NCBI RefSeq assembly: GCF_003790525.1
Contig: NZ_CP033635.1
Length of the DNA: 64,000 nucleotides
Origin: Escherichia coli
GTDB taxonomy: Bacteria; Pseudomonadota; Gammaproteobacteria; Enterobacterales; Enterobacteriaceae
Direction: 5' to 3' (one strand)
Below, in pieces: positions 13,269 through 37,277 of the stretch. The notes below the pieces were generated by a model. It had not been told where the DNA came from. It did no database searches and saw only the letters and a list, made by a program, of their open reading frames with translations. The stretch's first letter is position 1. Each line of letters starts with the position of its first letter. A program made the position numbers and the translations under genes.

Positions 13269-14150
13269 ATGGATCTGCGCCGTTTTATTACACTTAAAAC
13301 CGTGGTGGAAGAGGGTTCCTTTTTGCGAGCTTCGCAAAAATTGTGCTGCACACAATCGACGGTGACTTTTCATATTCAGCAGCTTGAGCAGGAGTTCTCA
13401 GTCCAGTTATTTGAGAAAATTGGTCGACGAATGTGCCTTACCCGCGAAGGAAAAAAGCTGCTGCCGCACATCTATGAACTCACCAGAGTGATGGATACCC
13501 TTCGTGAGGCTGCCAAAAAAGAGTCGGATCCGGACGGGGAACTACGCGTTGTTTCAGGCGAAACGTTGCTTTCTTACCGAATGCCGCAGGTGTTGCAGCG
13601 TTTTCGGCAACGCGCACCAAAAGTGTGTTTATCGTTGCAGTCTCTGAACTGTTACGTGATCCGTGATGCGCTACTGAATGATGAGGCTGATGTCGGCGTC
13701 TTTTACCGCGTAGGGAATGATGATGCTCTGAACCGACGAGAGTTGGGTGAACAATCGCTGGTGCTGGTAGCTTCACCGCAAATTGCAGATGTCGATTTTA
13801 CTGAGCCGGGAAGACATAACGCCTGTAGTTTTATTATCAATGAACCGCAATGTGTCTTCCGCCAGATATTTGAGAGCACGCTGCGCCAGCGACGGATCAC
13901 GGTGGAAAACACCATTGAGCTTATAAGTATCGAAAGCATCAAGCGTTGTGTCGCGGCAAATATCGGGGTCAGTTACCTGCCGCGCTTTACAGTGGCAAAT
14001 GAACTTGCGAGTGGCGAATTAATCGAATTGCCTTTTGGCGAACAGTCGCAGACCATTACGGCAATGTGCGCTCACCATGCCGGAAAAGCGGTTAGCCCGG
14101 CGATGCACATTTTTATTCAGTGTGTTGAAGAGTGTTTTTTGCCGGGATAA
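13269..14150 (+). CDS. yfiE: LysR-family transcriptional regulator
   Basis: 293-aa ORF with N-terminal LysR HTH (LRRFITLKTVVEEGSFLRASQKLCCTQSTVTFHIQQLE); divergent from eamB. Confidence 0.9.
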   Translation: MDLRRFITLKTVVEEGSFLRASQKLCCTQSTVTFHIQQLEQEFSVQLFEKIGRRMCLTREGKKLLPHIYELTRVMDTLREAAKKESDPDGELRVVSGETLLSYRMPQVLQRFRQRAPKVCLSLQSLNCYVIRDALLNDEADVGVFYRVGNDDALNRRELGEQSLVLVASPQIADVDFTEPGRHNACSFIINEPQCVFRQIFESTLRQRRITVENTIELISIESIKRCVAANIGVSYLPRFTVANELASGELIELPFGEQSQTITAMCAHHAGKAVSPAMHIFIQCVEECFLPG

Positions 14151-14155
14151 AAATA

Positions 14156-14177
14156 ATGCCGGGCTTAAACCCGGCAT
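14156..14177. terminator. palindromic hairpin between convergent yfiE and srmB (putative bidirectional terminator)
   Basis: ATGCCGGGCTTAAACCCGGCAT perfect palindrome flanked by A-rich and T-containing sequence. Confidence 0.7.
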
Positions 14178-14182
14178 TGAGA

Positions 14183-15648: not shown

Positions 15649-18002
<2,354 letters not shown>

Positions 18003-18248
18003 TTAATTTACTAAACATGGTTTGGTCAGCATAGCATCATGTTGTGCGAATAAACACCTGCTATTTTAATATTTGTTACAGTTGCTAAACACGCTGACGC
18101 AGGGCGGCGAGAAAAAGAGAAGTTACTGGCTGGTGGAGGATTAGGTGGTGAAATAAAAAGGCCGTTGGGTTACTCTTCAGGCAGTTAAATGGGCATTTCT
18201 ACACAGATAATGCGATGTTCAGATTCTGTAGACTTATAATGATAGATA

Positions 18249-18404
18249 ATGATCCGTCTACAGCATGACAAACAAAAACAGATGCGTTACGGAACTTTAC
18301 AAAAACGAGACACTCTAACCCTTTGCTTGCTCAAATTGCAGCTAATGGAGTGGCGTTTCGATAGCGCGTGGAAATTTGGTTTGGGGAGACTTTACCTCGG
18401 ATGA
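18249..18404 (+). CDS. rseD: rpoE leader peptide (51-codon upstream ORF coupled to rpoE)
   Basis: ATG at 18249 opens a 51-codon frame (MIRLQHDKQKQMRYGTLQKRDTLTLCLLKLQLMEWRFDSAWKFGLGRLYLG) whose TGA overlaps the rpoE ATG as ATGA (18401-18404). Length matches the described ORF51/rseD. Confidence 0.65.
   Translation: MIRLQHDKQKQMRYGTLQKRDTLTLCLLKLQLMEWRFDSAWKFGLGRLYLG
18291..18318 (+). promoter_or_regulatory. sigmaE-dependent promoter (rpoE P2-type)
   Basis: GGAACTT (18291-18297), 16-bp spacer, TCTAA (18314-18318); fits the sigmaE consensus GGAACTT-N16-TCAAA. Confidence 0.75.
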
Positions 18405-18976
18405 GCGAGCAGTTAACGGACCAGGTCCTGGTTGAACGGGTCCAGAAGGGAGATCAGAAAGCCTTTAACTTACTGGTAGTGCGCTATCAGCATAAAGTGG
18501 CGAGTCTGGTTTCCCGCTATGTGCCGTCGGGTGATGTTCCCGATGTGGTACAAGAAGCTTTTATTAAAGCCTATCGTGCGCTGGATTCGTTCCGGGGAGA
18601 TAGCGCTTTTTATACATGGCTGTATCGGATTGCTGTAAATACAGCGAAAAATTACCTGGTTGCTCAGGGGCGTCGTCCACCTTCCAGTGATGTGGATGCC
18701 ATTGAAGCTGAAAACTTCGAAAGTGGCGGCGCGTTGAAAGAAATTTCGAACCCTGAGAACTTAATGTTGTCAGAAGAACTGAGACAGATAGTTTTCCGAA
18801 CTATTGAGTCCCTCCCGGAAGATTTACGCATGGCAATAACCTTGCGGGAGCTGGATGGCCTGAGCTATGAAGAGATAGCCGCTATCATGGATTGTCCGGT
18901 AGGTACGGTGCGTTCACGTATCTTCCGAGCGAGGGAAGCTATTGATAACAAAGTTCAACCGCTTATCAGGCGTTGA
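18401..18976 (+). CDS. rpoE: RNA polymerase sigma factor sigmaE (sigma-24)
   Basis: 191 aa from MSEQLTDQVLVERVQKGDQKAFNLLVVRYQHKV...; ECF sigma regions 2 and 4. Confidence 0.97.
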   Translation: MSEQLTDQVLVERVQKGDQKAFNLLVVRYQHKVASLVSRYVPSGDVPDVVQEAFIKAYRALDSFRGDSAFYTWLYRIAVNTAKNYLVAQGRRPPSSDVDAIEAENFESGGALKEISNPENLMLSEELRQIVFRTIESLPEDLRMAITLRELDGLSYEEIAAIMDCPVGTVRSRIFRAREAIDNKVQPLIRR

Positions 18977-19659: not shown

Positions 19660-20615
19660 TGAAGCAACTTTGGTTTGCCATGTCATTAGTGACAGGTAGC
19701 CTGTTATTCTCTGCTAACGCCTCGGCCACTCCCGCGTCCGGGGCGTTATTACAGCAGATGAACCTGGCCAGTCAGTCACTGAATTACGAGCTGTCATTCA
19801 TCAGCATCAATAAACAGGGTGTTGAGTCTCTGCGTTATCGACATGCACGCCTCGATAACCGTCCTCTTGCACAATTGTTGCAAATGGATGGCCCGCGCCG
19901 GGAAGTGGTACAGCGCGGCAATGAGATCAGCTATTTTGAACCGGGACTTGAACCGTTCACGCTTAATGGCGATTACATTGTTGATTCTCTGCCATCGCTC
20001 ATCTATACCGATTTCAAACGCCTTTCTCCTTACTACGACTTTATCTCCGTCGGGCGCACGCGTATTGCTGATCGTCTTTGCGAAGTTATTCGCGTGGTTG
20101 CCCGAGATGGTACACGCTACAGCTACATCGTGTGGATGGACACCGAATCGAAATTACCGATGAGGGTTGATCTCCTTGATCGCGATGGTGAAACGCTGGA
20201 ACAATTTCGCGTGATTGCTTTTAATGTCAATCAGGATATCAGCAGCAGTATGCAGACGCTGGCGAAGGCAAATTTGCCGCCGTTGCTTTCTGTTCCTGTA
20301 GGTGAAAAAGCTAAATTCAGCTGGACGCCAACCTGGTTGCCACAGGGTTTTAGCGAAGTTTCCAGTAGTCGACGTCCGCTACCGACGATGGACAACATGC
20401 CTATTGAATCACGTCTCTATTCCGACGGATTATTCAGCTTCTCGGTAAACGTTAACCGCGCTACGCCATCGAGCACCGATCAGATGTTGCGCACCGGACG
20501 CAGAACCGTCAGTACAAGCGTACGTGATAACGCCGAAATCACCATTGTCGGTGAACTGCCGCCGCAAACGGCGAAACGCATTGCCGAGAATATTAAGTTC
20601 GGGGCAGCGCAATGA
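19659..20615 (+). CDS. rseB: sigmaE regulatory protein RseB
   Basis: 318-aa ORF with signal peptide (MKQLWFAMSLVTGSLLFSANASA); start overlaps the rseA stop by 1 nt (TAATG). Confidence 0.95.
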   Translation: MKQLWFAMSLVTGSLLFSANASATPASGALLQQMNLASQSLNYELSFISINKQGVESLRYRHARLDNRPLAQLLQMDGPRREVVQRGNEISYFEPGLEPFTLNGDYIVDSLPSLIYTDFKRLSPYYDFISVGRTRIADRLCEVIRVVARDGTRYSYIVWMDTESKLPMRVDLLDRDGETLEQFRVIAFNVNQDISSSMQTLAKANLPPLLSVPVGEKAKFSWTPTWLPQGFSEVSSSRRPLPTMDNMPIESRLYSDGLFSFSVNVNRATPSSTDQMLRTGRRTVSTSVRDNAEITIVGELPPQTAKRIAENIKFGAAQ

Positions 20616-21091
20616 TCAAAGAGTGGGCTACCGTCGTCTCCTGGGAAAACGGGCAGGCGCTGGTTAGTTGTGATGTTAAAGCCTCATGCAGCAGCTGCGC
20701 TTCACGCGCCGGTTGCGGTAGCCGCGTGTTGAATAAACTTGGCCCGCAAACCACGCATACCATTGTCGTACCCTGTGATGAACCGTTAGTGCCGGGGCAA
20801 AAAGTAGAATTAGGAATCGCCGAAGGCAGCCTGCTTAGCTCCGCATTACTGGTTTATATGTCGCCGTTGGTGGGACTATTCCTCATCGCTTCACTATTTC
20901 AGCTACTCTTTGCTTCAGATATTGCAGCATTATGCGGTGCGATTCTCGGTGGCGTTGGTGGATTCCTGATTGCACGTGGCTGCTCTCGAAAGTTTGCTGC
21001 CCGGTCTGAATGGCAACCGATCATCTTAAGCGTGGCCTTGCCGCCTGGCCTTGTGCGATTTGAAACATCTTCGGAAGACGCGAGCCAGTGA
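20612..21091 (+). CDS. rseC: sigmaE regulatory protein RseC
   Basis: 159-aa ORF, N-terminal cysteine cluster (CSSCASRAGC) and two TM segments; ATGA overlap with rseB. Confidence 0.93.
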   Translation: MIKEWATVVSWENGQALVSCDVKASCSSCASRAGCGSRVLNKLGPQTTHTIVVPCDEPLVPGQKVELGIAEGSLLSSALLVYMSPLVGLFLIASLFQLLFASDIAALCGAILGGVGGFLIARGCSRKFAARSEWQPIILSVALPPGLVRFETSSEDASQ

Positions 21092-21287
21092 TTTCACTGG
21101 CTTTGTTGCATTTTGCATAACAAATGCGAGGACGTTTCCAGATACCCAATCCATACGGTATGAACATTTCCTCGCCTCAATGTTGTAGTGTAGAATGCGG
21201 CGTTTCTATTAATACAGACGTTAAGCTCAGAACAGCGACTTCTAAAAGCCTGGTTAACCGGGCATTAAGGCACAATAATCATACTTT

Positions 21288-23087
<1,800 letters not shown>

Positions 23088-24122: not shown

Positions 24123-24223
24123 ATTATTTATGAGATAAATCTCCCGTGGCTAACGACATCCCCCGTCGTTGTGTATAGAATATTCCCCCGAAGTTTAAGG
24201 TTGGCACCTCCAGGTTGCCACGG

Positions 24224-24315
24224 CACACGAAACAGCGTTGGTCCCCATATACCGGTAAACTGAAACTGCAGCGAAGCAGTTAGCAGAACCATGTATATCA
24301 GGTCTGTTTCGTGTG
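24224..24315 (+). promoter_or_regulatory. rnc 5' leader long-range stem (candidate RNase III autoregulatory structure)
   Basis: 12-nt arms CACACGAAACAG (24224-24235) and CTGTTTCGTGTG (24304-24315) are exact reverse complements in the untranslated leader upstream of the rnc ATG. Confidence 0.55.
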
Positions 24316-24319
24316 CTGA

Positions 24320-25932
<1,613 letters not shown>

Positions 25933-27811: not shown

Positions 27812-27900
27812 TTATAAAGTAAAACCCCCGAACTGGTAAGGAACGGGGGTTTTACTTTACAACTTTAATTTTGTGCAGCACACGATTCCAACGGAAATGA
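27812..27900 (-). ncRNA. ohsC: OhsC antitoxin sRNA (approximate boundaries)
   Basis: Minus-strand segment between the bidirectional terminator and a candidate -10 (RC of 27899-27904 = CATAAT). Contains the antisense of GTGCAGCACACGATTCCAA (27873-27891), an 18/19 match to the shoB 5' UTR copy at 28122-28140. Ends are not determined. Confidence 0.5.
27818..27856. terminator. bidirectional rho-independent terminator (acpS on + strand, ohsC on - strand)
   Basis: AGTAAAACCCCCG-aactggtaaggaa-CGGGGGTTTTACT palindrome; both strands give a G/C stem followed by UUUUACUUUA. Confidence 0.8.
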
Positions 27901-37093: not shown

Positions 37094-37277
37094 AGTGGCT
37101 CATTCACCGACTTATGTCAGCCCCTTCGGGACGTGCTACATAAAATTCGAATGACGCACAACAAGGTGCCTGCCGTCCAACTTCTGATATCAGCGTAGCT
37201 ATATCAACCCTCGGGCGAAACGTCGAGTTAGGCACCGCCTTATTCCATAACAAAGCCGGGTCATTCCCGGCTTTGTT
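37094..37277 (+). ncRNA. glmY: GlmY small regulatory RNA
   Basis: Starts ~12 nt after the -12 element (AGTGGCTCATTCACCGACTTATGTCAGCCCCTTCGGG...) and ends at the AAAGCCGGG-tcatt-CCCGGCTTT hairpin plus TGTTGTAT (37252-37277); no plausible ORF. 3' end approximate. Confidence 0.8.

Follow-up and report, generated by a model that had tools for sequence, protein, structure and literature searches.

In Escherichia coli, the rpoE operon has been described as rseD-rpoE-rseA-rseB-rseC, with RseD as a leader peptide (PMC8595263 and other open-access papers), and all of the rpoE promoters have been placed upstream of or within rseD (PMC8595263). Six rpoE promoters have been described, the proximal one, P6, being sigmaE-dependent. 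Translation of rseD has been picked up by PIRT-Seq, in a report that also cites an earlier validation by a lacZ translational reporter (PMC12350097), and three CsrA-binding sites have been reported in the rpoE leader, of which two overlap the Shine-Dalgarno sequence (SD) and the start codon (review, PMC7652899). In the polyamine literature (PMC4191411), rpoE is presented as a gene with a distant SD and a U-rich stem joining the SD to the AUG. A similar arrangement occurs in evgL-evgA and in the upstream ORF (uORF) of iraD (PMC11210196; PMC5574718), where the stop codon of a short uORF likewise overlaps the start of a stress-regulator gene or lies directly next to it, where downstream translation needs the translation of the uORF, and where CsrA binds the leader. 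The 5' leaders of amino-acid operons subject to attenuation (trpL, hisL and others) also contain a short ORF that is translated. With respect to rpoE itself, the name rseD was reportedly given to ORF51 by Yakhnin et al. in 2017, and the loss of coupling is said to cut rpoE translation by more than 50%.

The window analysed here, a continuous stretch of 64 kb (64,000 nucleotides) of E. coli DNA, covers the nadB / rpoE-rseA-rseB-rseC / lepA locus of this species. According to the ORF listing, an ATG-started ORF of 51 codons plus a TGA occupies positions 18249-18404 and encodes the 51-aa peptide MIRLQHDKQKQMRYGTLQKRDTLTLCLLKLQLMEWRFDSAWKFGLGRLYLG; this ORF and the other features of the rseD-rpoE region given below are all located on the plus strand. 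It lies in the nadB-rpoE intergenic region, directly 5' of the rpoE coding sequence (18401-18976, sigmaE, 191 aa, from the ORF listing and annotation), and read directly from the bases the two genes share an ATGA at 18401-18404, in which the rpoE ATG corresponds to 18401-18403 and the rseD TGA to 18402-18404. The sequence-only reading from which this analysis started had placed the ORF and its overlap at these very positions, and both the bases and the ORF listing agree with it to the nucleotide. Its identification of the ORF as the rpoE leader peptide ORF51/rseD proved equally correct, as the RefSeq CDS WP_001303621.1, "rpoE leader peptide RseD", has identical coordinates, the K-12 MG1655 counterpart is b4725 (2,710,009-2,710,164), and the NCBIfam equivalog model NF033697 (leader_RseD) recognizes the peptide with 104.2 bits (E = 3e-30), above the curated cut-off of 35 bits, by aligning residues 7-51 of RseD with profile positions 1-45. 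Two in-frame internal ATG codons occur further down, Met12 (18282-18284), which is common to Escherichia, Salmonella and Citrobacter, and Met33 (18345-18347); a 40-aa version starting from Met12 is annotated in certain E. coli records. A search against Pfam gave no domain in the RseD peptide. The 51-codon ORF is thus rseD, a published and annotated gene that has been correctly re-discovered and was already known. Elsewhere in the window, other RNA features include the 3' part of a 23S rRNA followed by a 5S rRNA (1-2519), the rncO leader (24190-24404), the ohsC antitoxin sRNA (27816-27892, minus strand), the GlmY sRNA (37094-37241), and AsrC, the antisense RNA of the rseC mRNA (Rfam, 505 bits, 20576-21406, minus strand), which spans rseC and the rseC-lepA spacer.

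How much weight an ORF of this length can bear depends on the chance expectation. The nadB-rpoE intergenic region was submitted to 5000 dinucleotide shuffles with the stop codon kept in place, and 0.9% of them gave an ATG ORF of 51 codons or more; in the window as a whole, an ORF of this kind precedes 4% of the stop codons. The rseD ORF is moderately unlikely by chance, and not overwhelmingly so. The overlap is even less informative. The ATGA occurs at the rpoE start in nearly all of the approximately 80 gamma-proteobacterial rpoE loci compared, because RpoE begins with Met-Ser or Met-Asn (ATG AGC or ATG AAC), codon 2 being AGC, AAC or AGT. Being forced by the rpoE coding sequence, the overlap is by itself no evidence for a uORF; it is not a designed feature and should not count as an independent argument in favour of one.

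The sequence-only reading had also located a sigmaE-dependent promoter inside the ORF, with its -35 element at 18291, and this holds. The -35 box GGAACTT occupies 18291-18297 (rseD codons 15-17) and the -10 box TCTAA, 16 nt further, occupies 18314-18318; the resulting arrangement, GGAACTT-N16-TCTAA, matches the consensus and is kept in 32 Enterobacterales, in which the -35 core is invariant. A Tn10 insertion at -90 has been described as lying "3 nt upstream of the -10 rpoEP6 promoter element" (PMC7461557); since -90 corresponds to window position 18311, the -10 element should begin at 18314, exactly as read from the sequence. The degenerate pattern GAACTT-N15-17-TCNAA has two matches in the 64 kb for 0.3 expected. 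The second match, at 14001-14027 (plus strand), falls in the 3' end of a yfiE-like ORF (13269-14150), points towards the 3' end of srmB, and may be due to chance, given the 0.3 matches expected per window. In the same area, the yfiE-like ORF and srmB converge with a gap of 32 nt (14151-14182) versus 208 nt in K-12 MG1655, so that approximately 176 nt of the K-12 sequence, possibly a repetitive element, are missing in this strain.

From the position of the -10 box, the 5' end of the sigmaE transcript is predicted at about G18325, some 6 nt downstream. As the promoter resides inside rseD, its transcripts lack the full uORF. On this point the earlier claim, that only transcripts from upstream promoters can translate the uORF, stands for the complete frame, which geometry excludes from the sigmaE transcripts, and perhaps not for its last part, since Met33 lies 3' of the predicted start site and a remnant of 19 codons, devoid of SD, could in principle be read. 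The remaining promoters, P1-P5, are taken here to be distal promoters whose transcripts begin upstream of 18249. Just before the rseD start, a conserved -10-like TATAAT box (18235-18240) ends 8 nt before the ATG, and the ACTTATAATGA box is perfectly conserved there and is a putative promoter. A transcript initiated from the ACTTATAATGA box would start at or beside the rseD ATG and would possibly be leaderless; as a secondary possibility, rseD might be translated from such a leaderless transcript of the conserved TATAAT box. A consensus scan of positions 17900-18500 for sigma70 promoters and terminators found nothing; the TATAAT box was missed because the scan demands both hexamers and the box has no accompanying -35 element.

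The region where rpoE translation starts displays the characters of a weak initiation region. The SD, GGGGAG (18383-18388), pairs with the anti-SD at -8.5 kcal/mol, lies 12 nt from the AUG, and in the minimum-free-energy fold of the sigmaE isoform the SD region is engaged in a local hairpin (18379-18386 with 18395-18402). Moreover, the SD overlaps candidate CsrA sites. Three conserved GGA motifs are read from the bases, one at 18370-18372 (candidate site 1), another inside the SD at 18385-18387 and a third overlapping the AUG at 18399-18401, and the three CsrA sites reported in the literature probably correspond to them. With respect to rseD itself, no complementarity to the anti-SD was found at any of the three in-frame AUG codons (18249, 18282 and 18345), a lack that counts against the coupling model.

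The substitution pattern of rseD is not that of a conserved protein. In comparisons with Citrobacter, Enterobacter and Pseudescherichia, the rseD substitutions are spread flatly over the three codon positions (6/7/7, 9/12/11 and 11/15/11, respectively), whereas those of rpoE concentrate in the third position (3/1/31, 5/0/52 and 3/3/58). Similarly, the dN/dS ratio of the rseD frame, 0.51-0.85, is the same as that of two out-of-frame controls and contrasts with the 0.01-0.04 of rpoE. No excess of third-position or synonymous changes, the mark of purifying selection, was found in rseD. As judged from these comparisons, the sequence of the RseD peptide does not seem to be under selection, and the ORF, if important, would matter by being translated.

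Within the species, the 221 bp around rseD were found in all but one of the 5426 complete E. coli genomes, with an identity of 99% or more in each of the 5425; however, this invariance does not single out rseD, as the rpoE coding sequence varies just as little. A boundary of diversity runs through this region, the distal part of the nadB-rseD intergenic sequence (17994-18199) reaching 99% identity in only 1872 of 5424 genomes, versus all 5425 for rseD and the start of rpoE (18200-18641). Outside the species, protein searches detected RseD exclusively in Escherichia, Shigella and Citrobacter. Direct inspection of the Salmonella (L082, L083) and Citrobacter (L085, L007) loci revealed an ORF of 54 codons in the same frame, which starts at an ATG contained in a conserved TATAATG; an extra T in Escherichia creates the ATG at 18249 and puts the older ATG out of frame, this 1-nt indel (GATAATGATC versus GATAA-GACC) switching which ATG is in frame. 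In the Salmonella locus L083, a 59-aa ORF predicted by the gene caller (861-1040) ends where the 54-aa rseD-like ORF begins (1040). Klebsiella pneumoniae, Enterobacter and most other Enterobacterales possess only short or ATG-less frames, and among the 31 Enterobacterales loci just 6 have an ATG ORF that reaches 40 codons. The long ORF is retained only in Escherichia, Salmonella and Citrobacter, with differing start codons. Its absence from Klebsiella, Enterobacter and most of the Enterobacterales implies that coupling is not essential for the expression of rpoE in general.

Conservation at this locus sits in nucleotide blocks, which include the -35 and -10 boxes of the sigmaE promoter. One block, GCTTGCTCA, starts exactly at the predicted +1 (G18325), and further blocks consist of ...GAGTGGCGTTTCGAT.ACGCGTGGA..., of TTTGGGGAGAC.TTACCTCGGATGAGCGAGCAG, and of the ACTTATAATGA box already mentioned, 8 nt 5' of the rseD ATG. 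The segment lying at the predicted 5' end of the sigmaE transcript, GCUUGCUC (18325-18332, rseD codons 26-29), is complementary to GAGCGAGC (18403-18410), which comprises the G of the rpoE AUG and codons 2-4, and the two arms pair with each other both in the minimum-free-energy fold of the sigmaE isoform and in the RNAalifold consensus; the complementarity extends up to 18325-18333 with 18402-18410. In the Enterobacterales, 95.7-98.4% of the alignment cells are paired, and each of the 13 changes that affect one arm alone still allows wobble pairing; no compensatory double changes occur, and shuffled controls score equally, covariation being uninformative within this order because the columns hardly vary. 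The free-energy z-scores of the leader are unremarkable (-0.8 and -0.4), and Rfam, including a permissive scan, has no family that covers the leader region.

The predicted pairing depends on where the transcript begins. When the transcript begins at 18325, the stem formed by the 5' arm and the AUG region reaches a probability of 1.0 and the AUG is unpaired with a probability of 0.09, versus 0.01-0.15 and 0.5-0.9, respectively, for 5' ends at 18247, 18183, 18074 and 18020. Altering the 5' arm in silico frees the AUG (unpaired 0.89). The prediction is robust to differing 3' ends and sensitive to the exact 5' end, being weaker at 18327. According to these models, the sigmaE transcript would start at the conserved block GCUUGCUCA (18325-18333) and would clamp the rpoE AUG and codons 2-4 in a conserved, isoform-dependent manner; that such a clamp is real and functional is a tentative proposal, and we consider it rather doubtful. 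An isoform switch in the rpoE mRNA is not described in the literature examined, so that the clamp and its dependence on the isoform are possibly new. The folding of the isoforms agrees with the prediction, already put forward by the sequence-only reading, of a promoter-specific translational control of rpoE, which would operate through the structure of the RNA as well as through the uORF.

Across the clades, the segment of roughly 25 nt that follows the predicted sigmaE start is, in most loci, the best or nearly the best partner of the rpoE initiation region among some 280 upstream windows. When the complementarity was compared with composition-matched shuffles in ten clades and the loci reaching p <= 0.05 were counted, 30 of the 35 Enterobacterales loci qualified, as did all five of Aeromonas, four of six in Shewanella, all four in the Alteromonadaceae/Colwellia group and both members of a Zobellella-like group. 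The five clades without significant complementarity are Vibrio (2/8), Idiomarinaceae (1/4), Pasteurellaceae (0/5), Pseudoalteromonas (0/4) and Rheinheimera/Alishewanella (0/6). Complementarity between the leader and the initiation region thus occurs in five of the ten clades, with sequences that differ from one clade to another (e.g., loci L046, L048, L050, L057 and L063). The clamp may accordingly be an old principle, for which Aeromonas, Shewanella, the Alteromonadaceae and the Zobellella-like group would possess equivalents of different sequence.

We consider it very probable that rseD is a leader ORF acting by translational coupling to rpoE, in which the act of translation counts and not the peptide. 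Ribosomes on the transcripts of the distal promoters P1-P5 would read the 51 codons through the sequence of the sigmaE promoter and the rpoE leader, and would terminate at the UGA overlapping the rpoE AUG. The passage of these ribosomes would presumably melt both leader arms together with the SD hairpin, bring a ribosome to the AUG and raise the translation of rpoE; in addition, the block 18325-18333 of these transcripts is predicted to pair elsewhere and to leave the initiation region open. The P6 transcripts, starting inside rseD at about G18325, would lack the uORF start and have their 5' end clamped on the rpoE AUG, so that a direct and less efficient initiation of rpoE would be expected from them. 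An alternative is that the ORF is fortuitous, its frame having stayed open only because the constrained nucleotides of the promoter and leader happen to contain no stop codon, with a translation that is incidental and has little control over rpoE, which would be governed by the promoters, the RNA structure, CsrA and RseA. Many of the features reported above would fit such a situation: the frame has neither coding signature nor SD, its length and start vary highly among the Enterobacterales, its ATGA is imposed by rpoE, and a chance probability of 1-4% is not negligible for a single locus. However, the translation of rseD has been seen experimentally by PIRT-Seq, an ATG frame has stayed open in Escherichia, Salmonella and Citrobacter despite an indel that switched the start, a coupling effect was reportedly published by Yakhnin et al. 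(2017), and the curators of RefSeq and EcoCyc accept the leader peptide. A purely fortuitous ORF thus seems improbable to us.

Still less credit is given to a functional RseD, namely a small protein with a trans-acting role in the response to envelope stress, as suggested by its rse name. The discoverers reportedly raised this possibility themselves in the abstract of their 2017 article, and both the co-transcription of rseD with the regulators rseA, rseB and rseC and its 100% conservation within E. coli would agree with it; nevertheless, the promoter and leader elements that overlap the ORF are just as conserved, as is rpoE, the peptide of Escherichia has a different N-terminus from that of Salmonella/Citrobacter, the ORF is missing from Klebsiella and Enterobacter, no Pfam domain occurs in the peptide, and the codon positions are flat. 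Such a role is very unlikely, and as the main explanation it was rejected on the dN/dS values, which equal those of the out-of-frame controls. Finally, a leader of the attenuation type, in which stalling in the uORF would select between a terminator and an antiterminator hairpin upstream of rpoE, could be suspected from a short ORF preceding a leader with alternative predicted pairings. This explanation is rejected because no intrinsic terminator-like site is present in 17900-18500; the peptide shows no run of regulatory codons either, and a stop codon overlapping the downstream start is the geometry of coupling, not of attenuation, which leaves this last reading with hardly any probability at all. 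Translational coupling by rseD thus remains by far the preferred explanation.

Since E. coli cannot do without sigmaE, an excess of which is nevertheless toxic, each layer of control over the amount of sigmaE bears on envelope homeostasis and virulence, and the rseD uORF represents one of these layers, already present in the literature and in the annotation. As no selection is seen on the RseD peptide, experiments should address the act of translation and the RNA rather than a trans-acting protein. In this respect, the testable prediction offered here is that the translation efficiency of rpoE would depend on the promoter from which the mRNA originates, by means of the clamping of the 5' end onto the start codon. 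If true, the transcript by which sigmaE positively autoregulates its own synthesis would be intrinsically poorly translated, and the positive feedback would be damped at the level of translation.

Compared to the systems from which we started, the locus is no different from rseD/ORF51 of E. coli K-12 (b4725, NF033697): the gene is the same, as are its coordinates relative to rpoE, its 51-aa product and its ATGA. The polyamine-modulon regions of rpoE, rmf, oppA and cpxR (Terui et al. 2009, reviewed in PMC4191411) combine a distant SD with a bulged U-rich stem to the AUG, which for rpoE corresponds to the predicted hairpin 18379-18386/18395-18402; that work deals with the local SD-AUG stem, and the passages of the review considered here mention neither the uORF nor a long-range pairing between the 5' end and the AUG. 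Unlike trpL and hisL, rseD has no terminator and no run of regulatory codons, and would act by coupling instead of transcription attenuation. The uORFs of the evgL-evgA and iraD leaders, the latter in a paper that does not mention rpoE, come closer and differ in the position of their CsrA sites. In iraD, CsrA acts wholly at the start of the uORF, and in evgL-evgA its sites are located near the uORF start with one on the evgA SD, whereas those reported for rpoE reside on the rpoE SD and AUG, within the 3' end of rseD. Above all, unlike the evgL and iraD uORFs, rseD harbours an internal promoter, so that one class of its transcripts is devoid of the uORF start.
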